Assembly: GCA_945897565.1 (NCBI GenBank)
Contig: CAMDFN010000003.1
Location: forward strand, 48,508-112,507
From: Chryseobacterium gleum
GTDB lineage: Bacteria > Bacteroidota > Bacteroidia > Flavobacteriales_D > Crocinitomicaceae
Length of the DNA stretch: 64,000 nucleotides
Direction: 5' to 3'
Positions 3,300 to 59,998 of the stretch are shown piece after piece. The notes under the pieces are model-generated. The model was not told the origin of the DNA. It was given only the letters and a program-made list of their open reading frames with translations, and did no database searches. The translations under genes and the position numbers were made by a program. Numbering within the stretch: position 1 is the first letter of the stretch; every line of letters starts with the position of its first letter.

Positions 3300-4724
3300 A
3301 TGCACAAAACTCATCTTATGTTTCGCGTCATTATATCCCTATTTATAAGCTCAGTTTGTTTTCAATTTGTTGCCCAAACCACCGTTTCGGGTGGTATCTA
3401 TCAAAACACCACTTGGAGCGCTTCCGGTAGCCCCTACCTCATGACGGGCTCAATGGTTGTATTTCCGGGTGTAACGCTCACGATAGAACCTGGTGTAGAA
3501 GTGCGCGTGACGCCAGATTACTCGTTTAATACGGGTAACTTGCGGTACTTGGAAGTAAGAGGAACGCTTGTAGCAGTTGGAACCGATGCAGCGCCGATTA
3601 CCTTCAAAACAACAGACGCTAGTATCCTAGGACAACAAACCTGGTATGGCATCAACATCAAAGGATCACAGGGTGGCAATGTGCAGCTAGACCGCTTCCG
3701 CTTACACGATAGCTGGCAAGGTATTGCTAATGATATTTCCCAACCTGGGGTAAGTTATAATTGGACGAACTGTCAGTTCAAAAACAATAATTACAGCATC
3801 CAACTCAATGCCGACATGTCTTATAATGGTTGCTTGTTTGAAAACAACGGCGTAGGGCAAGCAGCACAAATTTTGTATGGTTCCCTCACCGCCGATAATT
3901 GTCAGTTCATCAATAATTTTTGCTCTTTTACGTGGTCAAACAACATCAACGTAAATAACTGCTTATTCGAAGGCAATGTAAATAATATCATTGGCTCACC
4001 AGGAACGGTCAGCAATTGCCAATTTATCGACAACGATTTTGGCTTTGCAGAGGCTTATGGCCACACCATCCAAAATTGTTATTTCGAGGGCAATGGAGTA
4101 GCTATTGACAACTCTGGTGGGGCAAATATCAGTAACAACACCTTTGATAGTAATGTTTTAGCGGTTCGTTTAGGCGACGGCAGTTCACTCACCAATAATA
4201 TCATCACCAACAACGGTGTCGGTGTAGCCGTTTTGGCCTACAGCCCCAATTCAACGCTCATCGAAAACAATACCATTTGCTACAACACGGACTACAACCT
4301 TCAAAACCTGACAGATAAAAACTTTCAAGTCAATGCCAATTGCTTTTGCTCACAAGATTCCACATACATCGAGAACCTCATCTTAGATGGTTATGATGAC
4401 ATCACCAAAGGATTGGTCAACTACGCCATCTACGACGACTCCTGCGCCAATGTCCTGGACTACGTCGTTAAAATCAATCTTGATGGAGGTGCAGGTCTTG
4501 CAACGCTTCAGCCCAACTCCTGGCGTTTAAAAGGTCAAGATGCCAACACAATCTATATTGAAAGTGCGCAAGTGTTTCAACTTGAACTCATGAATTCTAT
4601 CGGGCAAGTTCAAAAAGAAATTATGCTTCAAAAAGGCGAAAATAAAATCTCAACAAATCACTTTCCGAGTGGCCTCTATTTTCTAAAAAATGAATTTGGC
4701 AGCACTCAGAAAGTGCTGCTTTGA
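3300..4724 (+). CDS. Right-handed parallel beta-helix repeat protein with T9SS C-terminal sorting domain
   Basis: The ORF-track start is GTG 3288. ATG 3300 gives a signal peptide (MHKTHLMFRVIISLFISSVCFQFVAQ). Asn/Gly-rich ~22-aa periodic repeats recur (NCQF.NN, NNxI.NN). The C-terminal tail GLYFLKNEFGSTQKVLL looks like a T9SS CTD. Confidence 0.6.
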   Translation: MHKTHLMFRVIISLFISSVCFQFVAQTTVSGGIYQNTTWSASGSPYLMTGSMVVFPGVTLTIEPGVEVRVTPDYSFNTGNLRYLEVRGTLVAVGTDAAPITFKTTDASILGQQTWYGINIKGSQGGNVQLDRFRLHDSWQGIANDISQPGVSYNWTNCQFKNNNYSIQLNADMSYNGCLFENNGVGQAAQILYGSLTADNCQFINNFCSFTWSNNINVNNCLFEGNVNNIIGSPGTVSNCQFIDNDFGFAEAYGHTIQNCYFEGNGVAIDNSGGANISNNTFDSNVLAVRLGDGSSLTNNIITNNGVGVAVLAYSPNSTLIENNTICYNTDYNLQNLTDKNFQVNANCFCSQDSTYIENLILDGYDDITKGLVNYAIYDDSCANVLDYVVKINLDGGAGLATLQPNSWRLKGQDANTIYIESAQVFQLELMNSIGQVQKEIMLQKGENKISTNHFPSGLYFLKNEFGSTQKVLL

Positions 4725-40476: not shown

Positions 40477-40854
40477 ATGCCAACTATTCAACAATTAGTT
40501 CGCAAAGGAAGAACTGCGGTAGTCAAGAAAAGTAAGTCTGCTGCGCTTGATTCATGTCCACAACGCAAAGGTGTTTGCGTTCGTGTGTACACGACAACTC
40601 CTAAAAAGCCGAACTCGGCCATGCGAAAGGTAGCGCGTGTACGTTTGACCAATGGAAAAGAAGTCAATGCTTACATCGGTGGCGAAGGCCACAATCTTCA
40701 AGAACACTCATTAGTACTTGTGCGAGGAGGAAGGGTAAAAGATTTACCTGGGGTACGTTACCACATTGTTCGTGGTGCAGAGGATACAGCCGGAGTACAA
40801 GGCCGTAGCCAACGTCGTTCTAAGTATGGTACAAAACGTCCAAAGCAGAAATAA
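40477..40854 (+). CDS. rpsL: 30S ribosomal protein S12
   Basis: 125-aa ORF with [12 protein letters not shown] and [10 protein letters not shown] motifs. Confidence 0.97.
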
Positions 40855-40870
40855 TTAATAGCTAGACATC

Positions 40871-41341
40871 ATGAGAAGAAGAAAAGCGAAAAAAATTGCG
40901 ATCCTACCGGATCCAAAGTTTCAAGAAGTAGTTGTCACTAAATTTGTGAACAACCTCATGCTAGACGGTAAAAAAAGTTTAGCATTCCGTATTTTTTACG
41001 AAGCATTAGAAATCGTAGAAAAGAAAATCGAAGAGTCCAATGGTCTCGAAACCTGGAAAAAAGCCATCGAAAACATTACGCCAAGTGTAGAAGTACGCTC
41101 ACGTCGCGTCGGTGGTGCTACTTTCCAAATCCCTACTCCTGTTCGCGAAGAGCGCAAGGCATCGTTAGCTATGAAATGGTTAATCGGTTACTCACGCAAA
41201 CGCAACGAGAAAACAATGGCCCAACGTTTGGCCTCAGAAATCATCGCCGCTTCCAAAGAAGAAGGCGCAGCTTTCAAGAAGAAAGAAGATACGCTTCGCA
41301 TGGCTGAAGCTAACAAAGCATTTTCACACTTCAGATTCTAA
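40871..41341 (+). CDS. rpsG: 30S ribosomal protein S7
   Basis: 156-aa ORF in the rpsL-rpsG-fusA order with uS7 motifs (LPDPKF, GKKSLA). Confidence 0.95.
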
Positions 41342-41344
41342 GAA

Positions 41345-43438
41345 ATGGCTAGAGATTTAAGATTCACAAGAAATATTGGTATTGCAGCACACATCGATGC
41401 TGGTAAAACCACTACAACTGAGCGTATCCTTTATTATGGTGGTGTAAGTCACAAAATTGGTGAGGTTCACGACGGTGCAGCCACTATGGACTGGATGGAG
41501 CAAGAACAAGAGCGTGGTATTACCATTACCTCTGCTGCTACCACCTTAGATTGGAACTACCGCGGTCAAAAATACCACGTTAACATCATTGATACCCCAG
41601 GACACGTTGACTTTACCGTAGAGGTAAACCGTTCCCTTCGCGTACTTGACGGATTGGTATTTTTGTTCTCTGCAGTTGATGGCGTTGAGCCTCAGTCAGA
41701 AACCAACTGGCGTTTGGCTAATAACTACAACGTTCCACGTATTGGTTTTGTAAACAAAATGGACCGCCAGGGTGCAGACTTCTTAATGGTTTGTCGCCAA
41801 GTTAAAACAATGTTGGGAAGCCAAGCGCTTCCGCTTCAAATCAATATCGGTGAAGAAGATAACTTCAAAGGTGTGGTCGACTTGATCAACTGGAGAGGTA
41901 TTGTTTGGAATGAGCACGACATGGGAATGACTTTCCAAGAAGTAGAAATTCCTGCTGATATTGTCGATGAAGCACGTCAATTGCGTTCAGAACTACTCGA
42001 AGCAGTAGCCGAATTCGACGAAACCCTCATGGAGAAATTCTTCGAAGACGAAAACTCTTTGACAGAACGCGAAATCTTAAGTGCTTTGCGTCAAGCAACC
42101 ATCGCTGGAAAAGTTGTTCCAATGATGTGTGGCTCTTCTTTCAAAAACAAAGGCGTACAAGCAATGCTCGACATGGTAATGGAAATCCTTCCTTCACCAA
42201 TGGATGTTGAAGGCATTACCGGTATCAACCCTAAAACCGATCAAGAAGTGACGCGCAAACCATCTTACGATGAGCCTTTCGCTGGTCTTGCATTCAAAAT
42301 TGCAACAGACCCGTTTGTAGGTCGTTTGTGTTTCGTTCGTGCTTACTCTGGTAAACTTGAAGCAGGTTCTTATGTCTTGAACACGCGTTCAGACAACAAA
42401 GAGCGTATTTCTCGTATCTTCCAAATGCACGCCAACAAACAAAACCAAATTCCTGAACTAGGAGCTGGCGATATCGGTGCCGTTGTAGGATTTAAAGACA
42501 TCAAAACTGGCGATACCCTTTGTGCAGAAAATGCACCAATCATTCTTGAGTCCATGGACTTCCCAGATCCGGTTATCGGTTTGGCAATTGAGCCTAAAAC
42601 GCAAGCTGACACAGATCGTCTATCAATTGGTTTAAATAAACTTTCTGAAGAAGATCCAACTTTCCGCGTCAACACAGACGAAGAAACAGGGCAAACCATT
42701 ATCTCAGGTATGGGTGAGCTTCACCTCGAGATCATCATCGACCGTTTGAAGCGTGAGTTTAAAGTTGAAGTCAACCAAGGTGCTCCACAAGTAGCTTACC
42801 GCGAAGCCATCACAGGCCGAACAGATCACCGTGAAGTTTACAAAAAACAAACAGGTGGTCGCGGTAAATTTGCAGACATCAACGTTAAAATTTCAGCTCA
42901 AACGAACGAAGAAAAAACGGGTCTTGAATTCATCAATAGCATTAAAGGTGGTAACATTCCACGTGAATTTATTCCTTCAGTCGAAAAAGGCTTCAAAGAC
43001 TCCATGAAAAATGGTGTATTGGCTGGCTTCCCTATCGACGCTTTGGTTGTCGAATTGATTGATGGTTCATACCACAACGTCGACTCCGACTCACTATCAT
43101 TCGAATTGTGTGCAAGAATGGCTTACCGTGCAGCATTGAAATTATGTAGCCCAATTCTTCTTGAACCAATCATGAAATTAGAGGTGGTTACACCAGAAGA
43201 AAACATGGGTGACGTCGTTGGTGACCTCAACCGTCGTCGTGGCATGATGAAAGGCATGGATGACCGCAATGGTGCTAAAGTGCTCAAAGCTGACGTTCCA
43301 TTATCTGAAATGTTTGGATATGTTACACAGCTGAGAACCATCACATCTGGACGCGCAAGTTCTTCAATGGAGTTTTCTCACTATGCTGAGGCCCCAAGAA
43401 ACGTCGCAGAAGAAGTAGTAGCTAAAGCAAAAGGTTAA
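41345..43438 (+). CDS. fusA: Elongation factor G
   Basis: 697-aa ORF with GTPase motifs [17 protein letters not shown] and NKMD. Confidence 0.97.
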
Positions 43439-43462
43439 GTCACAGCATAAAAAGTTAAGCAG

Positions 43463-43768
43463 ATGAGCCAAAAAATCAGAATCAAATTAAAATCTTACGA
43501 TCACAACTTGCTCGATAAATCAGCAGAGAAAATCGTAAAAACAGTGAAGTCTACAGGTGCTGTGGTAAGTGGTCCTATTCCACTTCCAACACACAAAAGA
43601 ATTTACACCGTACTTCGTTCACCACACGTGAACAAAAAGGCGCGTGAGCAATTCGAATTGTGTGCCTACAAGCGTTTGATGGATATCTATAGCAGTTCTT
43701 CAAAGACTGTTGATGCCCTCATGAAGTTGGAGCTTCCTAGTGGAGTTGACGTAGAAATCAAAGTGTAA
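43463..43768 (+). CDS. rpsJ: 30S ribosomal protein S10
   Basis: 101-aa ORF starting [14 protein letters not shown]. It is the first gene of the S10 block. Confidence 0.95.
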
Positions 43769-43785
43769 TTTTTAACAACTAGTAT

Positions 43786-44400
43786 ATGCCAGGAATTATT
43801 GGACGCAAAATCGGGATGACTAGCATCTTCAGTGCTGAGGGCAAATCAATGCCATGCACAGTCGTAGAAGCTGGTCCTTGTGTTGTGACGCAAGTCAAAA
43901 CACAAGACAGGGATGGTTACGATGCAGTTCAGTTGGGATTCGGTGCTCGCAAAGAGAAAAACACCCCCAATGCATTGAAAGGCCATTTCAAAAAATCAAA
44001 CACGGCTCCTAAAGCCAAGTTGGTTGAATTCAAAGGATTCGACTCAGCTAATTTAGGAGACACCATTGACATCAGTGTCTTCAGTGAAGGTGAATTTGTC
44101 GATGTAACCGGAACCACAAAAGGTAAAGGTTTCCAAGGGGTTGTTCGTCGCCACGGATTCGCCGGCGTTGGACAAGCTACACACGGTCAGCACAACCGTC
44201 TTCGTGCACCAGGTTCTATCGGTGCTTGTTCCTATCCAGCACGTGTATTCAAAGGAATGCGCATGGCGGGTCAAATGGGTAACAAAAGACGCAAGCAGGC
44301 CAACCTACAAATTTTAAAGGTAATTGCAGACAAGAATCTAGTGATCATTAAAGGATCGATTCCAGGTGCAAATGGTTCAACCGTAACAATTGTCAAGTAA
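43786..44400 (+). CDS. rplC: 50S ribosomal protein L3
   Basis: 204-aa ORF with [13 protein letters not shown] and GKGFQGV motifs. Confidence 0.95.
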
Positions 44401-45023
44401 TGAAACTGAAGATCTACGATTCAAAAGGTGCAGCTACTGCTCAGTCAGTAACCCTTGCAGACGAGGTGTTTGGAATTGAACCAAACAACCATGCAATTTA
44501 CTTGGATGTCAAACAACATTTAGCGAACAAACGTCAAGGTACTCACAAATCTAAAGAGCGCAACGAGATTGCTGGTTCTACCAGAAAAATCAAGCGTCAA
44601 AAAGGTACTGGTGGTGCACGTGCGGGTTCAGTTAAATCTGGTACACGTGTAGGTGGAGGCCGTATTTTCGGACCACGCCCACGCAACTACCACTTCAAAT
44701 TAAACGTGAAGTTGAAACGTTTGGCACGTAAGTCTGCTTTTGCTTTCAAAGTGAAAAGCGACTCTCTAATGGTCATTCAAGACCTTCACATGGAAGCAAA
44801 AACAAAAGACTTTAAAGCGCTTTTATCTTCGCTCAACCTTGAAAACCAAAAAGTACTTTTTATCCTCGGTGACAAAACGGACAGCGTATACTTAGCTGCG
44901 CGTAACCTTGGACGTGTAAAAGTCGTAACAGCAGATTCCTTTAACACTTACGACGTGCTCAACGCAGCAAAAGTGATTTTGGCTGAAAGCTCTATTGAGA
45001 AAATTCAAACGATTCTTAACTAA
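44400..45023 (+). CDS. rplD: 50S ribosomal protein L4
   Basis: 207-aa ORF with a TAATG overlap with rplC. Assignment rests on operon position and the RQKGTGGAR motif. Confidence 0.93.
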   Translation: MKLKIYDSKGAATAQSVTLADEVFGIEPNNHAIYLDVKQHLANKRQGTHKSKERNEIAGSTRKIKRQKGTGGARAGSVKSGTRVGGGRIFGPRPRNYHFKLNVKLKRLARKSAFAFKVKSDSLMVIQDLHMEAKTKDFKALLSSLNLENQKVLFILGDKTDSVYLAARNLGRVKVVTADSFNTYDVLNAAKVILAESSIEKIQTILN

Positions 45024-45028
45024 GCGTT

Positions 45029-45325
45029 ATGCAAACTATTATCAAGAAGCCGGTCATTACGGAAAAAGCGACAAAACTAAGCGAGCTTTCTAATCGCTTT
45101 ACTTTTGAAGTCGACCGTAAGTCCAACAAAATCGAAATTAAAAATGCCATCGAAAAGATGTATGGAGTACATGTCACAGATGTTCATACATTAAACTATG
45201 GTGGTGGGGTATCCTCTGTGAAGTACACGAATAAAGGCATTGTTGAGCAAAAAAGCAAACAATGGAAGAAGGCTGTAGTAACGATAGCAGATGGTGAAAC
45301 CATTGATTTATTTAACAATTATTAA
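45029..45325 (+). CDS. rplW: 50S ribosomal protein L23
   Basis: 98-aa ORF assigned by operon position between rplD and rplB. Confidence 0.9.
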   Translation: MQTIIKKPVITEKATKLSELSNRFTFEVDRKSNKIEIKNAIEKMYGVHVTDVHTLNYGGGVSSVKYTNKGIVEQKSKQWKKAVVTIADGETIDLFNNY

Positions 45326-45334
45326 TGTTTAACC

Positions 45335-46159
<825 letters not shown>

Positions 46160-46166
46160 TTAAGGT

Positions 46167-46445
46167 ATGAGTCGTTCATTAAAGAAACCACCGTTTGTTC
46201 ACTATAAGCTGATGAAACGAGTTGACGATGCTCAAGAGTCAAGCAGTAAGGCTGTCATAAAAACATGGTCAAGAGCATCCACGATTACTCCAGAATTTGT
46301 TGGTTTGACCTTCGCTGTTCACAACGGCAATAAGTTCATTCCAGTATTTGTTACGGAAAACATGGTAGGTCACAAACTAGGAGAATTTTCTCCTACCCGC
46401 AACTTCCGTGGCCACGCCGGTAATAAAAAAGATAAGAAACGTTAA
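46167..46445 (+). CDS. rpsS: 30S ribosomal protein S19
   Basis: 92-aa ORF with [11 protein letters not shown] and GHKLGEF motifs. Confidence 0.95.
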
Positions 46446-46459
46446 GAATTATTACAGTC

Positions 46460-46855
46460 ATGGGAGCTAGAAAACGCTTAAGAGCTGAAGAGCTAAAAGA
46501 GAATAAAAAGTCAATGGCCATCGCGCGCTTGAATGATTCACCTATTTCTCCTCGTAAGATGAGATTAGTAGCTGATTTGATTCGTGGTGTTGAAGTCAAT
46601 AAAGCTTTGAACATCCTCCACTTCAATAGTAAAGATGCTTCTACAAGCCTTGGTAAACTTCTCCGTTCTGCAATTGCAAACTGGGAACAAAAAAACGAAG
46701 GTGCAGACATCAGCCAAGAAACACTCGTAGTGAGTCGTATTGAAGTAGGTTGTGGAACAATGCTCAAACGCATTCAACCAGCACCGCAAGGTCGTGCACA
46801 CAGAATTAGAAAAAGATCGAACCACGTGACGATCGTAGTTGATGGCACTAAATAA
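46460..46855 (+). CDS. rplV: 50S ribosomal protein L22
   Basis: 131-aa ORF assigned by operon position, with [14 protein letters not shown]. Confidence 0.93.
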
Positions 46856-46864
46856 CTAGAAGAA

Positions 46865-47590
46865 ATGGGACAAAAAACGAATCCAATTGGAAATAGACTT
46901 GGTTACATCCACGGATGGGAATCAAATTGGTACGGTGGCAACGACTACAAAGATAAAATCATCGAAGACGATCAAATCCGTCGTTACCTAAACGCTCGTT
47001 TGGCTAAAGCAAGTATTGCTAAAATCATTATCGAGCGCACTCTCAAACTAGTTACGGTCACTATCAATACTGCACGCCCTGGTGTCATCATCGGTAAAGG
47101 TGGTCAAGAAGTTGACAAACTAAAAGAAGAATTGAAAAAGTTGACGAAAAAAGAAATTCAAATCAACATCTTCGAAGTAAAGCGTCCAGAATTAGACGCA
47201 CGCTTAGTGTCTGATGGTATTTCTCGTCAATTAGAAGCCCGTATTTCTTTCCGTCGTGCCATTAAAATGGCCATCGCCGGATCTATGCGCATGGGTGCTG
47301 AAGGGATTAAAGTTAAAATCTCTGGCCGTTTGAACGGAGCTGAAATGGCTCGTACAGAAATGTACAAAGACGGACGTACACCATTGCATACATTCCGTGC
47401 AGACATCGACTACGCAGTATCTGAAGCACACACTACATACGGACGTATCGGTGTAAAAGTGTGGATTTGCCGCGGTGAAGTATATGGTAAGCGCGACCTC
47501 GCTCCTAACATCGGCATGAATACCGGTGCAGGAAACAGCAACCAAGGAGGCGACCGCAAACCTGCGTCGTTCAAAAGAAAAAAGAAGTAA
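46865..47590 (+). CDS. rpsC: 30S ribosomal protein S3
   Basis: 241-aa ORF starting [13 protein letters not shown], with a KH-domain motif (GIIIGKGG-like VIIGKGGQ). Confidence 0.96.
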
Positions 47591-47610
47591 GACAGTTAAA
47601 TTGACAGGAA

Positions 47611-48036
47611 ATGTTACAGCCTAAAAGAACAAAATTTAGAAGAGTACAGAAAGGAAGAAACCGTGGATTGGCCCATCGTGGCTCAACAATCGCGTTCGGA
47701 TCTTTCGGATTAAAGGCTTTGGAACCAGCATGGATTACTTCACGTCAGATTGAAGCTTCTCGTATCGCCGTTACTCGATACATGAAGCGTGAAGGAAAAG
47801 TTTGGATCCGAATATTCCCAGACAAGCCGGTTACCTCAAAACCAGCTGAAGTACGTATGGGTAAAGGTAAGGGTGCACCTAGCCACTGGGTTGCCGTGAT
47901 CAAACCAGGAACGATCATGTTTGAAGCAGATGGTGTCGCTTACGACATTGCAAAAGAAGCAATGCGCCTTGCCGCACAGAAGTTGCCTGTGAAATGCAAG
48001 TTCATTGTTCGCAATGATTATGTTTTACCAGTTTAA
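47611..48036 (+). CDS. rplP: 50S ribosomal protein L16
   Basis: 141-aa ORF starting [16 protein letters not shown]. Confidence 0.96.
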
Positions 48037-48045
48037 TCGATAAAG

Positions 48046-48240
48046 ATGAAACAAACAGAAATCACAAATCTATCTACAGCGGATTTACAAGGCCGTTTGG
48101 AAGACTTCAAAGGTCAATTGACTAACTTGAAGTTGACGCACAAATTGGCTCCAATTGAAAATCCATTGCGCATTCATCACATGCGCAAACTGGTAGCAAG
48201 ATTGAGTACAGAGTTAACTAAACGTTCAAATCAGGCTTAA
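48046..48240 (+). CDS. rpmC: 50S ribosomal protein L29
   Basis: 64-aa ORF assigned by operon position after rplP. Confidence 0.9.
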   Translation: MKQTEITNLSTADLQGRLEDFKGQLTNLKLTHKLAPIENPLRIHHMRKLVARLSTELTKRSNQA

Positions 48241-48255
48241 TCCTGAGATAAAAAA

Positions 48256-48519
48256 ATGAACATGGAAAAACGAAATTTAAGAAAAGAAAGAATTGGTGTC
48301 GTAACCAGTGACAAAATGGAGAAATCCATTGTCGTTTCTGTTGAACGTAAAGTGAAGCACCCGAAATATGGTAAGTTCGTTAAGAAAACTACCCGTTTTG
48401 TTGCTCACGACGAAAACAACGATTGTCATATTGGTGACACCGTTCGCATCATGGAAACACGTCCTTTGAGTAAATCAAAGAACTGGAGAATGGTAGAAAT
48501 TGTAGAACGCGCTAAATAA
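48256..48519 (+). CDS. rpsQ: 30S ribosomal protein S17
   Basis: 87-aa ORF with the [14 protein letters not shown] motif. ATG 48262 is an alternative start. Confidence 0.92.
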
Positions 48520-48528
48520 TCGGATAAA

Positions 48529-48897
48529 ATGATACAAACAGAATCCAGACTATCAGTAGCAGACAACTCAGGAGCAAAGGAAGTATTGGTCATCCGCGTT
48601 TTAGGCGGTACAAGAAGACGCTATGCTTCAGTTGGTGACAAAATTGTTGTTGCCGTTAAAAGTGCAATGCCCAACGCAGCCGTCAAAAAAGGTTCAGTAG
48701 CAAAAGCAGTTGTAGTAAGAACGAAAAAAGAAATTCGTCGCGCAGACGGTTCTTACATTCGTTTTGACGACAATGCGTGTGTGATCCTCAACCAAGGTGG
48801 TGAAATGCGTGGTACGCGTATTTTCGGGCCAGTAGCTCGTGAATTGCGTGAAAGCAACTACATGAAAATTGTTTCACTAGCACCTGAGGTGTTATAA
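48529..48897 (+). CDS. rplN: 50S ribosomal protein L14
   Basis: 122-aa ORF starting [17 protein letters not shown]. Confidence 0.97.
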
Positions 48898-48908
48898 ATC
48901 ATTGAGTA

Positions 48909-49223
48909 ATGCAAAAGAAATTACACATCAAGATTGGCGACACCGTGAAGGTTATTTCCGGTGAATCCAAAGGTCGTGAGGGCAAAATTGCCACCATAGA
49001 CCGCGAGAAAATGCGTGCAACTGTTGAAGGTGTTAACATGGTTAAAAAACACAACAAGCCAAGCGCAACAAATCCTCAAGGTGGCATCGAAGAAAAAGAA
49101 GGTTCGATTCACATTTCTAACCTTATGGTCATGAGCAACGGTGTTGCCAGCCGTATCGGAAGAAAAGAGGTAGAAGGTAAATTAGTACGTTACTCCAAAA
49201 AATCAGGGGAGGTGATTAAGTAA
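48909..49223 (+). CDS. rplX: 50S ribosomal protein L24
   Basis: 104-aa ORF with a KOW motif ([18 protein letters not shown]). Confidence 0.93.
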
Positions 49224-49774
49224 TGAGTTACACGCCAAGATTAAAAGAAAAGTACAGGAACGAAATCAAGCAAACGCTTCAAGAGCGTTTCAATTACAAA
49301 TCTGTAATGAGCGTTCCTAGGTTAGAAAAAATTGTTCTCAGCCAAGGTATGGGTGAGGCGGTTGCCGACAAGAAATTGATCGATAATGCAGCTGCTGACT
49401 TATCTCGTATCGCTGGTCAAAAAGCAATTACTACAATTTCTAAGAAAGATATCTCCAACTTTAAGTTGCGTAAAGGGATGCCAATTGGTACAAAAGTGAC
49501 CCTTCGTGGTGACCGCATGTACGACTTCCTAGATCGTTTACTTGCTGTTGCATTGCCAAGAACACGTGACTTCCGCGGAATCAACCCCAAAGGATTTGAC
49601 GGTCGTGGTAACTTCAACCTCGGTATCAAAGAACATATCATTTTCCCAGAAATTGATATTGACAAAGTAAACCGAATTTTAGGTATGGATATCACCTTCG
49701 TTACATCAGCAGCTAGCGACGAAGAGGCAAAAGCATTGTTGGATGCATTTGGTTTTCCATTTATTAAAAAGTAA
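49223..49774 (+). CDS. rplE: 50S ribosomal protein L5
   Basis: 183-aa ORF assigned by operon position, with the [14 protein letters not shown] motif. Confidence 0.95.
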
Positions 49775-49779
49775 TAGAA

Positions 49780-50094
49780 ATGGCTAAAGAATCAATGAAA
49801 GCGCGTGAGCGCAAAAGAGAAAGGTTAGTAAACCGTTACGAAAAGAAACGTGCGGAACTCACCAAAATTTTGAAGTCGACAGATGCATCTGAAGAAATTC
49901 AGTCTCTCAAATGGGACGCAATGATGAAATTGCAAAAATTACCAGCAAACTCCTCCAAAATCAGAAAACACAATCGCTGTGGCTTAACTGGTCGTCCGAG
50001 AGGTTACATGCGTCAATTTGGTATCTCAAGGGTAACTTTCCGCGAGATGGCTTTGGCTGGTAAAATCCCCGGAGTTAAGAAAGCAAGTTGGTAA
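49780..50094 (+). CDS. rpsN: 30S ribosomal protein S14 (long, non-zinc form)
   Basis: 104-aa ORF with [19 protein letters not shown] and a C-terminal KKASW. It has a single Cys, so there is no CxxC zinc ribbon. Confidence 0.93.
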
Positions 50095-50113
50095 TTAAGA
50101 AAAAACTAAAGAA

Positions 50114-50512
50114 ATGAATACAGATCCAATAGCAGACTTTCTCACCCGCATCAGAAATGCGAGTGCAGCAGGCTTGAAGACCGTAGATATCCCAAGTTCA
50201 AACATTAAACGTGCAATGACACAAATTTTGTTTGATCAAGGGTATATCCTCAACTACAAATTTGAGGAAGACAACAAACAAGGTGCCATCAAAATCGCCT
50301 TGAAATACAACATGTCTACGCGTGTACCAGCCATTACTAAATTGCAACGTGCTTCACGTCCAGGACTTAGAAAATATAGCAGTGCCGAAGAAATGCCACG
50401 CGTTTTGAATGGTTTAGGTATTGCCATCGTTTCTACCTCTCGTGGTGTGATTACAGATAAGGAAGCACGTCACCAAAAAATTGGTGGTGAAGTTCTTTGT
50501 TACGTTTACTAA
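50114..50512 (+). CDS. rpsH: 30S ribosomal protein S8
   Basis: 132-aa ORF starting MNTDPIADFLTRIRNA. Confidence 0.95.
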   Translation: MNTDPIADFLTRIRNASAAGLKTVDIPSSNIKRAMTQILFDQGYILNYKFEEDNKQGAIKIALKYNMSTRVPAITKLQRASRPGLRKYSSAEEMPRVLNGLGIAIVSTSRGVITDKEARHQKIGGEVLCYVY

Positions 50513-50524
50513 AAATTAAGAGCA

Positions 50525-51079
50525 ATGTCAAGAATTGGAAAAGCACTTATAACAATCCCAAGTGGCGTCGAAGTGACGTTCAAAGATGCCGTGTTCACGG
50601 TAAAAGGGAAAAAAGGCGAATTAACACAACACATTGATGCTTCGATCAGCGTAAGCATCGAAGACAACATCATTACTTTTGCGCGTGCTACTGACGCACC
50701 AGATCACCGCTCAAAGCACGGTTTATACCGCTCTTTGGTTTTCAACATGATCCAAGGTGTATCAGTAGGATTCAAAAAAGAGATGGAAGTTATTGGAGTT
50801 GGTTACCGTGCAACAGCAACTGGTCAACAACTCGAATTAGCCCTCGGATTTTCACATGCCATTATTTTGGAAATCCCGAAAGAAGTGAACGTTACCACTA
50901 CAACTGAAAAAGGTAAAGCTCCTGTGGTCTCTCTTGAGTCTCACGACAAGCAATTACTCGGACAAGTTGCAGCCAAGATTCGCTCTTTCAGAAAACCTGA
51001 ACCATACAAAGGAAAAGGTATCCGCTTTGTAGGTGAAGAAATTCGTAGAAAAGCTGGTAAGTCAGCAGGTAAAAAATAA
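50525..51079 (+). CDS. rplF: 50S ribosomal protein L6
   Basis: 184-aa ORF with MSRIGK and the [10 protein letters not shown] motif. Confidence 0.95.
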
Positions 51080-51090
51080 TCGAAAGAATT

Positions 51091-51444
51091 ATGGCACTAA
51101 ATAAAGTCTTAAGAAGAGCAAAAATCAAGCGAAGAATCAGAAAAAAACTTTTCGGTACTTCAGCTATTCCACGTCTCACTGTTTTTAGAAGTAACAAGCA
51201 AATTTATGCGCAAGTAATAGACGACAACACAGGTCGTACACTTGCCTCTGCTGGTTCACTGAAAATGGACGATGCGCAAAAAGTCAATAAAGTTAATCAG
51301 GCAGCAGTTGTCGGAAAGAAAATCGCAGAAGTTGCTCAAAAAGCAGGTGTAGAACGCGTCGTTTTTGACCGCAATGGTTACTTGTATCATGGTAGAATTA
51401 AATCCTTGGCTGATTCAGCTCGCGAAGGAGGACTCAAATTTTAA
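51091..51444 (+). CDS. rplR: 50S ribosomal protein L18
   Basis: 117-aa ORF assigned by operon position, with [11 protein letters not shown]. Confidence 0.94.
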
Positions 51445-51449
51445 GAAAA

Positions 51450-51968
51450 ATGGCAGCTCAAATCGTAAACAGAGTGAAATCAGCTGATATCGAGTTAAAA
51501 GACAAACTCGTTGCAGTGAATCGTGTTACCAAAGTAACCAAAGGTGGTCGTACGTTCAGTTTCTCAGCTATTGTTGTAGTTGGTGACGAACACGGCGTTG
51601 TTGGTCATGGCCTTGGTAAAGCGAAAGAAGTTACCGAAGCCATTACTAAAGGCATCGACGACGCTAAGAAAAACTTGATCAAAGTTCCTATTCTTAGAGG
51701 TACTGTTCCGCACGAACAAAAAGGTAAATTCGGTGGTGCTGAGGTATTCCTCAAGCCAGCAACTGAAGGTACTGGTGTAATCGCCGGTGGTGCAATGCGC
51801 GCAGTACTCGAAAGCGTTGGCGTACACAATGTATTGGCAAAATCTCAAGGATCATCTAATCCACACAACGTAGTGAAAGCAACTATGGTCGCACTATCAA
51901 ACATGCGCGATGCAGTTGCAGTTGCTCGTCAACGTGGAATTTCCCTTGATAAAGTATTCAACGGTTAA
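51450..51968 (+). CDS. rpsE: 30S ribosomal protein S5
   Basis: 172-aa ORF with the [12 protein letters not shown] motif. Confidence 0.95.
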
Positions 51969-51979
51969 AATATTCAGCA

Positions 51980-52159
51980 ATGAGCTCAATCAAAATCAAA
52001 CTAGTGAAAAGTGCGATCAAGCGTCCAGCTGATCAAAAAGCTACAATCCAAGCTTTAGGTTTTCGTCGCTTGAACCAAGTTATAGAAAAAGAGGTAACTC
52101 CTCAAATTATGGGAATGGTGAATAAGGTAAAACACCTTATTCAAGTAGTGGAACAATAG
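51980..52159 (+). CDS. rpmD: 50S ribosomal protein L30 (absent from ORF track, 59 aa)
   Basis: Translated by hand as MSSIKIKLVKSAIKRPADQKATIQALGFRRLNQVIEKEVTPQIMGMVNKVKHLIQVVEQ*. It occupies the expected slot between rpsE and rplO. Confidence 0.9.
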   Translation: MSSIKIKLVKSAIKRPADQKATIQALGFRRLNQVIEKEVTPQIMGMVNKVKHLIQVVEQ

Positions 52160-52171
52160 ACTAAGAAAGAA

Positions 52172-52618
52172 ATGGAATTACATAATCTTACACCAGCAGC
52201 AGGCTCGATCAAAGCAGAAAAGCGTATCGGTCGTGGTCAAGGATCAGGACGCGGTGGTACCTCCACACGTGGACACAAGGGTGCAAAATCTCGTTCTGGT
52301 TACAAAACCAAAATTGGTTTTGAAGGTGGACAAATGCCTTTGCAGCGTCGCGTACCTAAATTTGGTTTTAAAAACATCAATCGTGTTGAATACAAAGCCA
52401 TTAATCTCGACATGATCGAAAACTTAGCCAACGTAAAAGGCATTCTGGACATCACTCCTGAAGTCATGCGTGAGAACGGTCTTTTATCGAACAACCAACT
52501 CGTCAAAGTACTTGGTCGTGGTGACTTGAAAGCGAAAGTAAACATTTCCGCCAACGGATTTTCAACCACAGCAATTGCTGCAATTGAAGCCTTAGGTGGT
52601 ACATGTACAAAAATCTAA
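52172..52618 (+). CDS. rplO: 50S ribosomal protein L15
   Basis: 148-aa ORF with the [18 protein letters not shown] motif. Confidence 0.95.
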
Positions 52619-52619
52619 C

Positions 52620-52627
52620 TATCTTTG
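52620..52627 (+). promoter_or_regulatory. Bacteroidota -7 box-like motif (TATCTTTG) in the rplO-secY spacer
   Basis: Exact copy of the box seen at gltX, rpsL and the flippase gene, 11 nt before the secY ATG. No clear -33 element. Confidence 0.3.
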
Positions 52628-52638
52628 CACGCTTTTAG

Positions 52639-53985
52639 ATGAAACGATTCATAACCAACCTGCAAAATATCTGGAAAGTTGAAGAGCTGCGCAAGCGCAT
52701 TCTCCTAACACTTGGCCTTATTCTTACTTACCGAGTAGGATCCTTCGTGATTTTGCCTGGTGTCAAATACGACGCCCTGACAACCACGGCTACAGACCAA
52801 AACTTTCTAGAAAGTATCCTCTCCGTGTTTTCGGGTGGAGGATTCTCCAATGCTTCGATTATGGCGCTTGGCATCATGCCTTACATCAGTGCCTCCATCA
52901 TCATGCAATTGTTAGGAATGGCTGTTCCAGCGGTTCAGAAATTGCAAAATGAAGGAGAATCAGGCAGAAAGCAAATCAATAACTACACGCGTCTTTTGAC
53001 CATCGTTATTTGTGCTTTACAAGCCCCTAGTTACCTTACGCTTTACGTAAGTAACAAAAATGCAATGCCCGATGATCCAAGTACCTTTTGGTGGACACAA
53101 ACCATCATGTTACTCATCGCAGGCTCTATGTTTGCAGTATGGTTAGGTGAACGCATCACTGAGCGCGGCATTGGCAACGGTATCTCTTTACTCATTACAG
53201 TCGGCATCCTATCTCGCCTACCTGGTGCATTCTTTGCAGAGTTTGGTAAATCTTTAGAAGCAGGCAACCTCATCCGCTTGGTTTTAGAAATCGTTATGTT
53301 CTTCTTGATCATCATGATCACCATTCTTATTGTTCAAGGCGTTAGGCGCATCCCGCTCAATACAGCGAAGCGCGTTGCCGGAGCAAGAGCAATGGAAGAT
53401 GTAAACGGCGCACGCAATTACTTGCCTATCAAAATCAATGCAAGTGGCGTAATGCCGATCATCTTTGCCCAAGCGATCATGACCATTCCAATCATGGTAT
53501 ACCAAGGAGTGACGCAGGAGCAGAACGCCGGATGGTTAACCAAGACCCTCGGAGATCCATACGGTTTTAGTTACAACCTTCTTTTGGTTGTTCTTATCGT
53601 GGTATTTACCTACTTCTACACCGCTATCATGATCAACCCAAACAAAATCGCCGATGACCTCAAAAAGAGCGGTGGTTTTATCCCAGGTGTTCGTCCAGGT
53701 GAAGAAACGGCAGAATATGTCGATCAAGTTGTATCTCGCATCACCTTTCCGGGATCATTATTCCTTGCCCTAATTGCTATTTTACCTTCTATTGCAAAAC
53801 TAGCAGGTGTAAATGACAGCTTTGCCATGTTCTTTGGTGGTACTTCCATTTTAATCATGGTGGGTGTAGTTTTAGACACCCTACAACAAATCGAAACTTA
53901 CCAACTCAACCGCAACATGGATTCACTCATGGACGGCACACGTGTAAGAGGTCGTAGAGGTGCTAACGAATTATCTGGAATGTAA
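52639..53985 (+). CDS. secY: Preprotein translocase subunit SecY
   Basis: 448-aa polytopic ORF in the spc-operon position with a SecY motif ([15 protein letters not shown]). Confidence 0.96.
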
Positions 53986-53989
53986 TAAG

Positions 53990-54208
53990 ATGGCTAAACA
54001 AACCTCCATAGAACAAGACGGAACAATACTCGAAGCGCTGCCCAACGCAATGTTTAGAGTAGAGCTCGAAAACGGACATGTCCTTACTGCTCATATTTCA
54101 GGCAAGATGCGCATGTTTTACATTAAAATACTTCCAGGAGACCGCGTAAAAGTAGAAATGTCTCCATATGATTTAACAAAAGGTAGAATATCTTTTAGAT
54201 ACAAATAA
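53990..54208 (+). CDS. infA: Translation initiation factor IF-1
   Basis: The start is moved to ATG 53990 ([30 protein letters not shown]), giving 72 aa. Confidence 0.95.
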
Positions 54209-54216
54209 CTAGAATT

Positions 54217-54333
54217 ATGAAAGTCAGAGCATCAGTTAAGAAGAGAACTGCAGATTGCAAGATTGTGAAGCGTAAAGGTAAAATTTACGTGATCAACAAG
54301 AAGAATCCGAAATTAAAACAACGTCAAGGATAA
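54217..54333 (+). CDS. rpmJ: 50S ribosomal protein L36 (non-zinc form; absent from ORF track, 38 aa)
   Basis: Translated by hand as [38 protein letters not shown]. It occupies the expected slot between infA and rpsM. Confidence 0.9.
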
Positions 54334-54343
54334 TTATAAGTAT

Positions 54344-54718
54344 ATGGCACGTATTGCAGGTATAGATTTACCAAAAAACAAAAGAGGAGTCATTGGCTTA
54401 ACTTACATCTACGGAATTGGTAGAAGTAAAGCTAAGATGATTTTGAACACAAACGGTATTGATGAAAACATCAAAGTCCAGGAATGGAATGATGACCAAT
54501 TAGCCGCTATTCGCAACACCGTTAATGAAATCAAAACGGAAGGTCAGTTGCGCTCAGAAGTTCAGTTGAACATCAAGCGCCTCATGGACATCGGATGTCA
54601 GCGCGGGATTCGTCACCGTTTAGGTTTACCGCTTCGTGGTCAAAGAACCAAAAACAACTCTCGCACACGTAAAGGAAAACGTAAGACTGTTGCGAATAAG
54701 AAAAAAGCAACGAAATAA
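54344..54718 (+). CDS. rpsM: 30S ribosomal protein S13
   Basis: 124-aa ORF starting [10 protein letters not shown]. Confidence 0.96.
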
Positions 54719-54736
54719 TAATTAGTTCCCAATAAA

Positions 54737-55123
54737 ATGGCAAAAGCAAATCAAAAAAAGAAGAAGAACGTTAAAGTTGATGCTGCCGGAGAAGCGCATA
54801 TTCAAGCGAGTTTCAATAACATCATCATTTCTTTAACGAACAATGCCGGACAAGTGATCTCTTGGTCATCTGCAGGCAAGATGGGCTTCAAAGGTTCTAA
54901 AAAGAACACGCCTTATGCTGCACAAATCGCAGCAGAAGACGCATCAAAAGAAGCACATGACTTCGGACTACGTAGAGTGCGTGTTTATGTAAAAGGCCCA
55001 GGTGCTGGACGCGAGTCTGCCATCCGTGCACTTCACAATTCAGGTATTGAAGTAACAGAAATCGTTGACGTGACTCCAATGCCACACAACGGTTGTCGTC
55101 CTCCAAAAAGAAGAAGAGTATAG
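54737..55123 (+). CDS. rpsK: 30S ribosomal protein S11
   Basis: 128-aa ORF with [11 protein letters not shown] and the C-terminal [16 protein letters not shown]. Confidence 0.96.
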
Positions 55124-55197
55124 TTTTTTTTAACCTGCGGGCTTAGTGTCATCGAAGGAATGCCTTAATTCATGACGCCTGCACAATATTTTATATA

Positions 55198-55806
55198 ATG
55201 GCAAGATACAGAGGTCCTAAATCAAAAATTGCGCGTCGTTTCCGCGATCCAATTTTTGGCCCAGACAAATCCTTGGAAAGAAGAAATTACGGACCAGGAC
55301 AACACGGCCCATCTAAAAGAAGAGGTGGCAAGCAATCTGAATATGCGGTACAATTAGGTGAAAAGCAAAAAGCGAAGTACACTTATGGTATCCTTGAGCG
55401 TCAGTTTGCGAATATGTTTGAGAAAGCATCACGCATGAAAGGAATTACCGGTGAAGTCTTATTGCAACTTTGCGAAGCACGCTTAGACAATACAGTTTAT
55501 CGCTTAGGTATCTCTCCTACACGTCGTGGAGCTCGTCAGCTTGTTTCTCACAAACACATTACAGTAAACGGTGAAGTTGTAAACATCCCTTCTTATACTT
55601 TGCGTATTGGTGACGTCGTAGGCGTTCGCGAAAAATCAAAGTCTTTAGAAGCAGTTACAGGTTCCCTTACGGCTAGTAACAAAACATATGATTGGCTTGA
55701 TTGGGATTCATCAAGTATGAGCGGTAGATTATTAAGCCTACCAGCAAGAGAAATGATCCCAGAAAATATTCGCGAGCAATTGATCGTCGAATTGTATTCT
55801 AAATAA
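55198..55806 (+). CDS. rpsD: 30S ribosomal protein S4
   Basis: 202-aa ORF starting MARYRGPK, with an S4 RNA-binding domain ([10 protein letters not shown]). Confidence 0.96.
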
Positions 55807-55822
55807 CCCTAAGCGATAGAAA

Positions 55823-56815
55823 ATGGCAATATTGGATTTTCAAAAACCTGACAAGGTTATCATGCTCAACTCCGATGATTTCAACGGTGAATTTGAGTTT
55901 CGTCCGCTAGAACCGGGCTACGGAATTACTATTGGTAACTCCCTGCGTCGAATTTTGCTTTCTTCCTTAGAAGGTTTTGCAATTTCGTCTATAAAAATTC
56001 AAGGTGCAGACCATGAATTCACTACCCTCAAAGGTATCGTAGAAGACGTTACAGAAATTGTTCTAAACCTCAAGCAAGTGCGCTTCAAGCGTCAAATCGA
56101 AGGAACAGACGCTGAAACTGTAATCGTTTCAGTGAGCAATCAACAACAACTCACAGCCGGTGATCTTGGTAAATTTACAAGTGCGTTCCAGGTGTTAAAC
56201 CCTGACCTCGTTATTTGTAATATGGAGTCTTCAGTTAAATTTGAAATGGAGCTTACGATTGTTAAAGGTCGTGGTTATGTGCCAGCAGATGAAAACAAAT
56301 CTGCAAACGCTGCTTTCGGAACTATATGCATTGACTCTATTTTTACACCAATTGTCAATGTACAATACAGTATCGAAAACTACCGTGTTGAGCAGAAAAC
56401 CGACTATGAGAAATTGGTATTCCACATCAAAACAGATGGATCTATTCATCCTAAAGATGCATTGAAAGAAGCTGCTAAAATTTTGATTCACCACTTCATG
56501 TTGTTCTCTGATGAGCGCATCACTTTAGACAGTGAAACCAAAGCTGAGTCAGAAGAATTTGATGAAACGTCACTACACATGCGTCAATTGCTCAAAACCA
56601 AATTGGTGGATATGGACCTTTCAGTTCGTGCCCTCAATTGCTTGAAAGCTGCAGATGTAGAAACCCTCGGTGACCTCGTATCCTATGCCAAATCTGATTT
56701 ATTGAAATTCAGAAACTTTGGCAAGAAATCATTGACTGAGCTAGAAGACCTCGTCGATAGCAAAGGCCTGACTTTCGGTATGAATGTCGCAAAATATAAA
56801 TTAGACAGAGATTAA
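55823..56815 (+). CDS. rpoA: DNA-directed RNA polymerase subunit alpha
   Basis: 330-aa ORF with an N-terminal dimerisation domain ([11 protein letters not shown]) and a C-terminal HhH domain ([10 protein letters not shown]). Confidence 0.96.
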
Positions 56816-56826
56816 GATTTTAAGTC

Positions 56827-57285
56827 ATGAGACACGGAAATAAAGTAAATCACTTAGGAAGAAAGACCGGCCACCGCAAAGCAATGCTTCAAAATATGGC
56901 TTGTTCTTTGATCGAACACAAGCGCATCAATACCACTATTGCAAAAGCAAAATCTTTGCGTGTATTTGTTGAGCCATTGCTCACCAAATCAAAAACCGAT
57001 TCTACACACTCGCGTCGTGTTGTCTTCTCTTACCTTCAAAGTAAAGAAGCCGTTACCGAATTATTTAGAGAGGTTGCGCCAAAAATTGCAAACCGCGAAG
57101 GTGGTTACACACGCATCATCCGCACTGGTTACCGTTTAGGTGACAACGCCGAAATGTGTATGATTGAATTCGTTGACTTCAATGAAATATACAGCAACAA
57201 CGAAAGCAAGAAAACAACGCGTCGTTCACGCCGTGGTGGAAAAGCTAACGTAGGGGTTAGCGCAACTACTGTTGAAGCAACGTGA
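56827..57285 (+). CDS. rplQ: 50S ribosomal protein L17 (as terminated by TGA 57283-57285; see finding on in-frame tail)
   Basis: 152-aa ORF starting [21 protein letters not shown]. It is the last gene of the alpha operon. Confidence 0.93.
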
Positions 57286-57447
57286 GTTGCAGAAGTTGTT
57301 GAAGAAGCTCCAGTTGCAGAAGTTGTTGAAGAAGCTCCAGCGGCAGAAGTTGTTGAAGAAGCTCCAGCGGCAGAAGTTGTTGAAGAAGCTCCAGCGGCAG
57401 AAGTTGTTGAAGAAGCTCCAGCTACAGAAGTTGTTGAAGAAACACCA
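57286..57447 (+). repeat. Six tandem 27-nt units ((V/A)AEVVEEAP in the rplQ frame)
   Basis: Units 1-2 are identical (gttgcagaagttgttgaagaagctcca). Units 3-5 are identical (gcggcagaagttgttgaagaagctcca). Unit 6 is diverged (gctacagaagttgttgaagaaacacca). Confidence 0.95.
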
Positions 57448-57524
57448 GCTACAGAATCAACTGAAGAAGCAGGTTCTGCGACTGAAGAAGAGAAAACAGA
57501 AGAATAAATTGACAATATGTTGAT

Positions 57525-57553
57525 AAAAAAGGCGGACAATGTCCGCCTTTTTT
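57525..57553 (+). terminator. Rho-independent terminator of the ribosomal protein/alpha operon
   Basis: AAAAAAGGCGGAC-AAT-GTCCGCCTTTTTT, located 18 nt after TAA 57505-57507. Confidence 0.8.
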
Positions 57554-57586
57554 GTTTTTATACCCCTCCTATTTTGACAAAGTCCT

Positions 57587-57594
57587 TAATTTTG
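57587..57594 (+). promoter_or_regulatory. Bacteroidota -7 box (TAATTTTG) upstream of carA
   Basis: TAnnTTTG match 14 nt before ATG 57609. Confidence 0.4.
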
Positions 57595-57608
57595 AAGAAA
57601 ATTTTTAA

Positions 57609-59998
<2,390 letters not shown>

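Follow-up and report, generated by a model that had tools for sequence, protein, structure and literature searches.

A probable strain-level nonsense polymorphism separates ribosomal protein bL17 from its acidic repeat tail in a Crocinitomicaceae lineage

A stop codon between bL17 and its tail

We analysed a 64-kb stretch of DNA, hereafter the window, in which the ribosomal protein gene rplQ ends at a TGA. We think it probable that this TGA is a recent nonsense polymorphism at the level of strains. Termination at UGA would then release a functional bL17 that lacks its tail, and any full-length protein would be scarce and unselected. The tail is ancestral, a single base separates the stop from a sense codon, the change is restricted to one lineage and the L17 core is intact. 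We infer that the truncated protein works and, only from the assembly of the strain into contigs of 128–143 kb, that it is tolerated. Readthrough of the rplQ UGA would be no more than basal. The features concerned are listed in Table 1.

Table 1. Position of rplQ, its former tail and neighbouring features in the window
Feature	Position	Strand	Details	Source
rpsK	54737-55123		operon-end gene	
rpsD	55198-55806		operon-end gene	
rpoA	55823-56815		operon-end gene	
rplQ	56827-57285	+	operon-end gene; 152-aa bL17 ending at TGA 57283-57285	ORF list, translation
Ribosomal_L17 domain, complete	56884-57174	+	codons 20-116	Pfam PF01196
Private missense GAA->GTA, E142V	57250-57252	+	T at 57251; haplotype shared with the stop	
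TGA stop	57283-57285	+	from TCA (Ser153), C-to-G at 57284	
Six 27-bp units, (V/A)(A/T)EVVEE(A/T)P	57286-57447	+	3' of the TGA	TRF, unit-by-unit comparison
Non-repeat end of ancestral tail, ATESTEEAGSATEEEKTEE, plus TAA	57448-57507	+	conserved in relatives	
Intrinsic operon terminator	57522-57556	+	GC stem 57531-57547, U-tract from 57548	fold

The window encodes a complete L17 core followed by an open acidic frame

The rplQ gene is the last of an rpsM-rpsK-rpsD-rpoA-rplQ cluster, and its product is identifiable as bL17. The match to PF01196 scores 124.9 bits (cutoff 27), with residues 20–116 covering profile positions 1–97 of 97. Residues 1–152 align to bL17 of F. johnsoniae (7jil_N, 163 aa; E = 1.7e-64), one of 72 PDB sequences matched. 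A second Bacteroidota-like chain has 160 aa and the E. coli protein 127 aa. Hence, with a complete domain that aligns to the F. johnsoniae protein, the truncated 152-aa product is normal-sized for a Bacteroidota bL17. Judged by sequence, it should assemble into ribosomes.

Beyond the TGA, the frame stays open for 73 codons (57286–57504) and closes with TAA at 57505–57507. These coordinates had been given by a first-pass annotation of the window, and both the ORF list and translation confirm them. The tail comprises six acidic 9-aa repeats and a 19-aa end piece. The repeats run VAEVVEEAP (twice), AAEVVEEAP (three times) and ATEVVEETP, ahead of the end piece ATESTEEAGSATEEEKTEE. At 57288–57456, Tandem Repeats Finder detects 6.3 copies of a 27-bp unit (95% matches). 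The 73 residues are strongly acidic, including 26 Glu and one Lys. As no Lys or Arg comes before the closing ...EEEK, trypsin would yield a peptide of about 85 residues across the stop, too long for standard proteomics. Within the tail codons there is no in-frame ATG, GTG or TTG. Codon counts also bore out an earlier remark that the tail uses codons favoured by its ribosomal neighbours. Thus, the preferences of 26 neighbouring ribosomal protein, fusA and rpoA genes recur in the tail (GAA 25/26, GTT 14/14, CCA 6/6).

The terminator lies after the tail rather than after the TGA, as had been noted. It consists of GGCGGAC-AAU-GUCCGCC and a U-tract (57531–57553), with pairing that extends over 57522–57556. 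The folding energy is -22.3 kcal/mol (z = -5.6) and none of 200 shuffled sequences was equally stable. A simple consensus pattern scan for terminators missed this hairpin and, from the TGA to the TAA, listed none on the + strand. The next gene, carA, starts at 57609, past the rplQ terminator. The terminator is kept in L002, a contig from a more distant relative (94.7% identity), where only two loop-proximal bases differ.

Two further reading frames cross the repeat. One is an 83-aa Lys/Leu/Gln-rich ORF with a TTG start (57272–57523, + strand). The other is a 136-aa Ser/Thr/Ala-rich antisense ORF (57129–57539, - strand). We considered both as genes and judged them to be, probably, frame by-products of the GAA/GTT-rich repeat.

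Same-species relatives carry a serine codon in place of the stop

Eleven same-species contigs, from eleven samples, cover codon 153. Nine of them (L003–L011, nine samples) have 98.0–99.7% nucleotide identity to the window over 1.4–6.1 kb. The other two, L036 and L037, are 99.4–99.8% identical over 11–12.6 kb. All eleven read GCAACGTCAGTTGC whereas the window, and one further contig (L001), read GCAACGTGAGTTGC. Briefly, GCAACG-TCA-GTTGC in 11 of 11 relatives is GCAACG-TGA-GTTGC in the window. Hence, a single C-to-G transversion turns a serine codon into the stop. The flanks do not differ between the window and the TCA relatives. At greater distance, L002 has CCA (Pro) at codon 153 and other species have CCA or ACN.

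Full-length proteins tell the same story. P0125 (226 aa), P0123 (244 aa) and P0130 (280 aa) are 98% identical to the conceptual product of the window and read ...VEATSVAEVVEE... across the site. These proteins and the eleven contigs have the same repeats and end piece as the window, and same-species full-length loci share its gene order (rpsD-rpoA-rplQ-terminator-carA-eno). They differ from it in their number of repeats and at two codons: codon 153 is TCA (Ser) rather than TGA, and codon 142 is GAA (Glu) rather than GTA. The codon 142 change lies 33 nt upstream of the stop change. Position 57251 is A in all 9 same-species contigs that cover it but T in the window and L001. L036 and L037 also have GAA at this codon.

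A sense codon is thus one mutation away from the stop, and the DNA downstream is homologous to coding sequence in relatives. Both are marks of a nonsense polymorphism. Going by its codon-for-codon homology with the translated tails of relatives, the open frame beyond the TGA is no chance event.

Comparison with L002 alone, which shows four clustered differences from the window in the region of the stop, had suggested an origin by template switching at a quasi-palindrome (hairpin GCAAC-GUGA-GUUGC in the window). We dropped this idea because same-species relatives read GCAAC-GTCA-GTTGC, with one base different.

The tail is uninterrupted in related bacteria

To describe the tail in relatives we used two queries. 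With the conceptual readthrough product, we recovered L17 proteins of 197–282 aa with matching repeats and a ...ATEEEKTEE end, all unbroken. The second search used the 152-aa core alone and so had no bias towards tailed proteins. Its best 120 cluster representatives (84–97% identity) were all, 120 of 120, between 181 and 241 aa long. Nine other 90% clusters contributed 114 more listed members, of 184–256 aa apart from 2 contig-end fragments. The window's own 152-aa protein falls in a 39-member 90% cluster, in which the other complete members listed have 192–280 aa. Taken together, these searches give over 230 related L17 proteins of 181–282 aa with an uninterrupted tail, from Crocinitomicaceae-like bacteria of fresh water. 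The relatives are labelled as Crocinitomicaceae or Cryomorphaceae MAGs, and record and sample names suggest that they come from freshwater.

The tail varies in length by whole repeats. Same-species tails with 98–99.7% nucleotide identity have 6, 8 or 12 units. Within clusters, protein lengths step by 9 aa (190, 199, 208, 217, 226, 235, 244) and, across Crocinitomicaceae-like freshwater bacteria, tails have about 3 to 13 nine-residue units. Differences between units, in relatives with 6, 8 and 12 of them, are mostly synonymous (GCG/GCT, GAA/GAG). The end piece ATESTEEAGSATEEEKTEE and its TAA are nucleotide-identical across same-species relatives, and the end piece is conserved at the protein level family-wide. 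Since variation is biased towards synonymous changes, and the end piece is conserved across the family, relatives evidently translate the tail and keep it under constraint. The plasticity of copy number suggests, from sequence comparison, that constraint on tail length is loose. We found no description of an acidic repeat tail on bL17 in the literature searched.

These data answer the first-pass annotation on several points. It had called for an alignment of rplQ from relatives, and orthologues do carry an uninterrupted acidic tail. It had also allowed that orthologues might end at the equivalent of 57282, with unrelated DNA downstream. This is not so: they have a sense codon at the site and read straight through. 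Its second explanation, a nonsense mutation in an L17 with an ancestrally long tail, agrees with the uninterrupted tails and with the TCA to TGA change within the species.

Side observations arose from the same searches. In related clusters, protein length runs from 184 to 282 aa in 9-aa steps with the 19-aa end piece conserved. In NCBI, 'MAG: Sphingomonadales bacterium' is the label of P0022 and P0117, two long-tailed L17 proteins with 75–85% identity to the window's Flavobacteriales-type protein. The labels probably reflect mis-binned contigs.

The TGA allele is present in two assemblies

The TGA might be a consensus, base-call or assembly artefact, in which case the organism would have TCA and make a normal 226-aa bL17. 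The source is a short-read metagenome assembly, with contig names in the k141 style of MEGAHIT. The site is 3 nt from a 27-bp tandem array and differs from eleven relatives by one base. However, position 57284 is in unique sequence, outside the array. Consensus errors are also rare at the coverage needed for assembly, which counts against an artefact.

The allele also recurs. The exact 152-aa product is recorded only in contig k141_5285804 of assembly ERZ27280258 (L001, 128 kb) and in the NCBI copy of that contig. L001 begins at approximately 48159 in window coordinates, and another contig of the same assembly (L038, k141_986627) ends at approximately 48299. The window spans this break. From the two ERZ27280258 contigs it differs at 6 sites in about 17 kb, one within 6,459 nt and five within 10,689 nt. 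Given the different boundaries, the break that is spanned and the differing sites, the window is not the same assembly contig as L001. Hence, TGA and E142V occur together in two separate assemblies of near-identical strains. Both sequences may share a study or sample, or come from related samples, and to that extent an artefact could be shared.

The surrounding haplotype is coherent. Compared with all other same-species contigs, the window lineage has 18 private substitutions in 6.7 kb, of which 14 are synonymous. L001 shares every one that it covers, except at 57183. Private substitutions that are mostly synonymous are what a genuine strain, diverged and under purifying selection, would show. 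The TGA is linked to E142V on this haplotype, which argues against an isolated error. We found no further TGA alleles in JGI metagenome contigs or GTDB species representatives using a degenerate 35-nt pattern, which matched only CCA-type repeats. The first-pass annotation had listed base-call or assembly error as its third explanation. The two assemblies and coherent haplotype weaken that explanation and, though we keep it in view, we now consider it unlikely.

Termination and possible readthrough at the rplQ UGA

Long ORFs in the window (n = 72) end with TAA in 54 cases, TGA in 11 and TAG in 7. The TGA stops include ATGA stop-start overlaps, such as that of carA and eno, and all three that the first-pass annotation had cited to argue that TGA is an ordinary stop here. 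The preference for TAA in highly expressed genes is strong, in a genome of 43.9% GC. The window has approximately 27 ribosomal protein, fusA and rpoA genes, and of these rplQ alone ends with TGA. This exception is explained by the stop being new. As a side observation, the ~26 such genes upstream of rplQ (40477–56815) end with TAA, save rpsK (TAG).

A second alternative to nonsense polymorphism is that UGA readthrough is selected. Programmed or regulated readthrough would generate short and long bL17 isoforms and, consequently, heterogeneous ribosomes. UGA is the leakiest bacterial stop codon. The A1 read-through protein of phage Q-beta is an example of leaky UGA termination or programmed readthrough. 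As in the window's rplQ, a UGA is followed by an open in-frame extension on one mRNA. Further features of rplQ fit: the tail's frame is intact, its codons are optimal and it lacks a start codon, the terminator comes after the tail, and rplQ alone of the ribosomal cluster ends with TGA, as a leaky design would choose.

However, programmed cases show joint conservation of stop and extension, whereas in rplQ the stop is found in one strain and the extension is ancestral coding sequence. No other lineage has a stop at the site: we saw none in over 230 related proteins, and pattern scans of JGI metagenomes and GTDB genomes gave none either. The two sequences that do combine a TGA with an open tail frame, the window and L001, are nearly identical and would look alike whether or not selection keeps that frame open. 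The flanks are as in TCA relatives, which means that evolution has added no stimulatory element. The context is UGA-G, whereas the weakest UGA contexts reported for E. coli are UGA-C or UGA-A. Local RNA structure at the stop is no better than in shuffled sequences (z = 0.3), and this is so for the TGA and TCA alleles alike. A permissive E-value scan of 55500–58000 gave no match to an Rfam recoding element or SECIS. The Rfam matches that it did give were sub-threshold sRNA models which overlapped the terminator, except for RAGATH-8 across the repeat array (15 bits, E = 0.46). A nonsense mutation of very recent date would, moreover, be just as likely to show every feature in favour of selected readthrough. 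The first-pass annotation had proposed programmed readthrough and two isoforms as its first explanation. With a sense codon at the stop site in orthologues, that proposal goes unsupported and we regard it as very unlikely.

We also considered the GCAAC-GUGA-GUUGC hairpin, or a GNRA loop, as a signal for readthrough or termination. This candidate was rejected: the stability of the hairpin does not exceed that of shuffled sequences and the TCA allele folds alike.

Decoding of UGA by a dedicated system (selenocysteine, an opal suppressor tRNA or a reassigned code) is scarcely credible, given that 10 other ORFs of the window end with TGA, ATGA overlaps among them, which is at odds with code tables 4 and 25, that a tRNA scan of the 64-kb window found tRNA-Leu as the only tRNA, with no suppressor tRNA or tRNA-Sec, that there is no SECIS-like match or stable hairpin 3' of the UGA, and that orthologues have Ser or Pro at the site, not Cys.

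Predicted consequences of tail loss

A recent nonsense polymorphism, as we favour, would act as follows. A C-to-G transversion would have turned codon 153 of rplQ from TCA into TGA in a single lineage of a Crocinitomicaceae species from freshwater. Ribosomes would terminate mainly at this UGA to yield a 152-aa bL17 with the whole L17 domain and a basic linker. The 73-aa acidic tandem-repeat tail, normal for the species and family, would be lost. Its former codons would become an approximately 240-nt 3' untranslated stretch before the unchanged terminator. Since no gene follows rplQ in the operon, a polar effect is not expected. On this account the mutation is so recent that the tail has had no time to decay, and it remains intact and codon-optimised. 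Some full-length protein, in a small and unselected amount, may still arise by near-cognate decoding of UGA.

The open frame, optimal codons, absent start and late terminator look like design. They are also the look of a very young nonsense mutation, for all were inherited from an intact tailed gene. A truncating allele in a natural population is familiar and involves no new mechanism. If real, the allele amounts to a natural knockout of the bL17 acidic tandem-repeat tail, in a strain abundant enough to give contigs of more than 100 kb. This suggests, again provided that the allele is real, that the tail can be dispensed with in some conditions at least. Complete loss might nevertheless be costly, given the family-wide upkeep of the tail and its 19-aa end.

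There is only a slim chance that readthrough of the UGA in this strain is frequent enough to matter biologically, with a minority of ribosomes carrying the tail near the periphery of the exit tunnel. If that were so, a single point mutation would have created natural ribosome heterogeneity and a natural dosage series for the bL17 tail. In E. coli, bL17 is near the vestibule of the exit tunnel and contacts trigger factor (PMC12752688). By analogy, and speculatively, the tail could plausibly influence factors that act co-translationally.

Long tails of low complexity are a known kind of feature of bL17, as structures of actinobacterial ribosomes illustrate. The proteins of 5O60 (chain O, 199 aa), 5V7Q (chain N, 180 aa) and 8CRX (chain m, 187 aa) have low-complexity C-terminal extensions. 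In a phmmer search, actinobacterial chains of 174–199 aa aligned as far as query residues 181–198, into the tail. Unlike the protein of the window, these belong to another phylum, and the two sets of tails are likely to be of independent origin. The protein of F. johnsoniae (7JIL chain N) is of the Bacteroidota type and has a basic extension of ~35 aa past the 120-aa core. It differs in having a short Ala/Glu/Pro-rich end, without 9-aa tandem acidic repeats. The paper that describes the F. johnsoniae 70S ribosome mentions bL17 only in a table (PMC7797042).

Other variation around rplQ

Three minor observations concern sequence variation in the region. First, at 57183 the window has T, while L001 and all relatives have C; this is the sole difference between the window and L001 over 6.4 kb. 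Private substitutions are denser at 57183–58534, from the end of rplQ through carA (10 in 1.35 kb), than in the preceding 3.35 kb (2) or following 2 kb (6). The cluster may be a recombination tract.

Second, a break just after rplP/rpmC (about 48159–48299) is common to contigs of at least two short-read assemblies. L038 and L001 overlap by approximately 141 nt at the break, and contig L041 of ERZ27280238 ends at 48294. This suggests a segment that is repeated or variable between strains.

Third, L037 lacks approximately 33 nt at the rpsN/rpsH boundary (3856–3865 of that contig, compared with 50057–50099 of the window). Its S14 gene is called at 98 aa with no Pfam match, compared with 104 aa elsewhere. 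This is possibly another strain-level C-terminal variant or else an assembly flaw.
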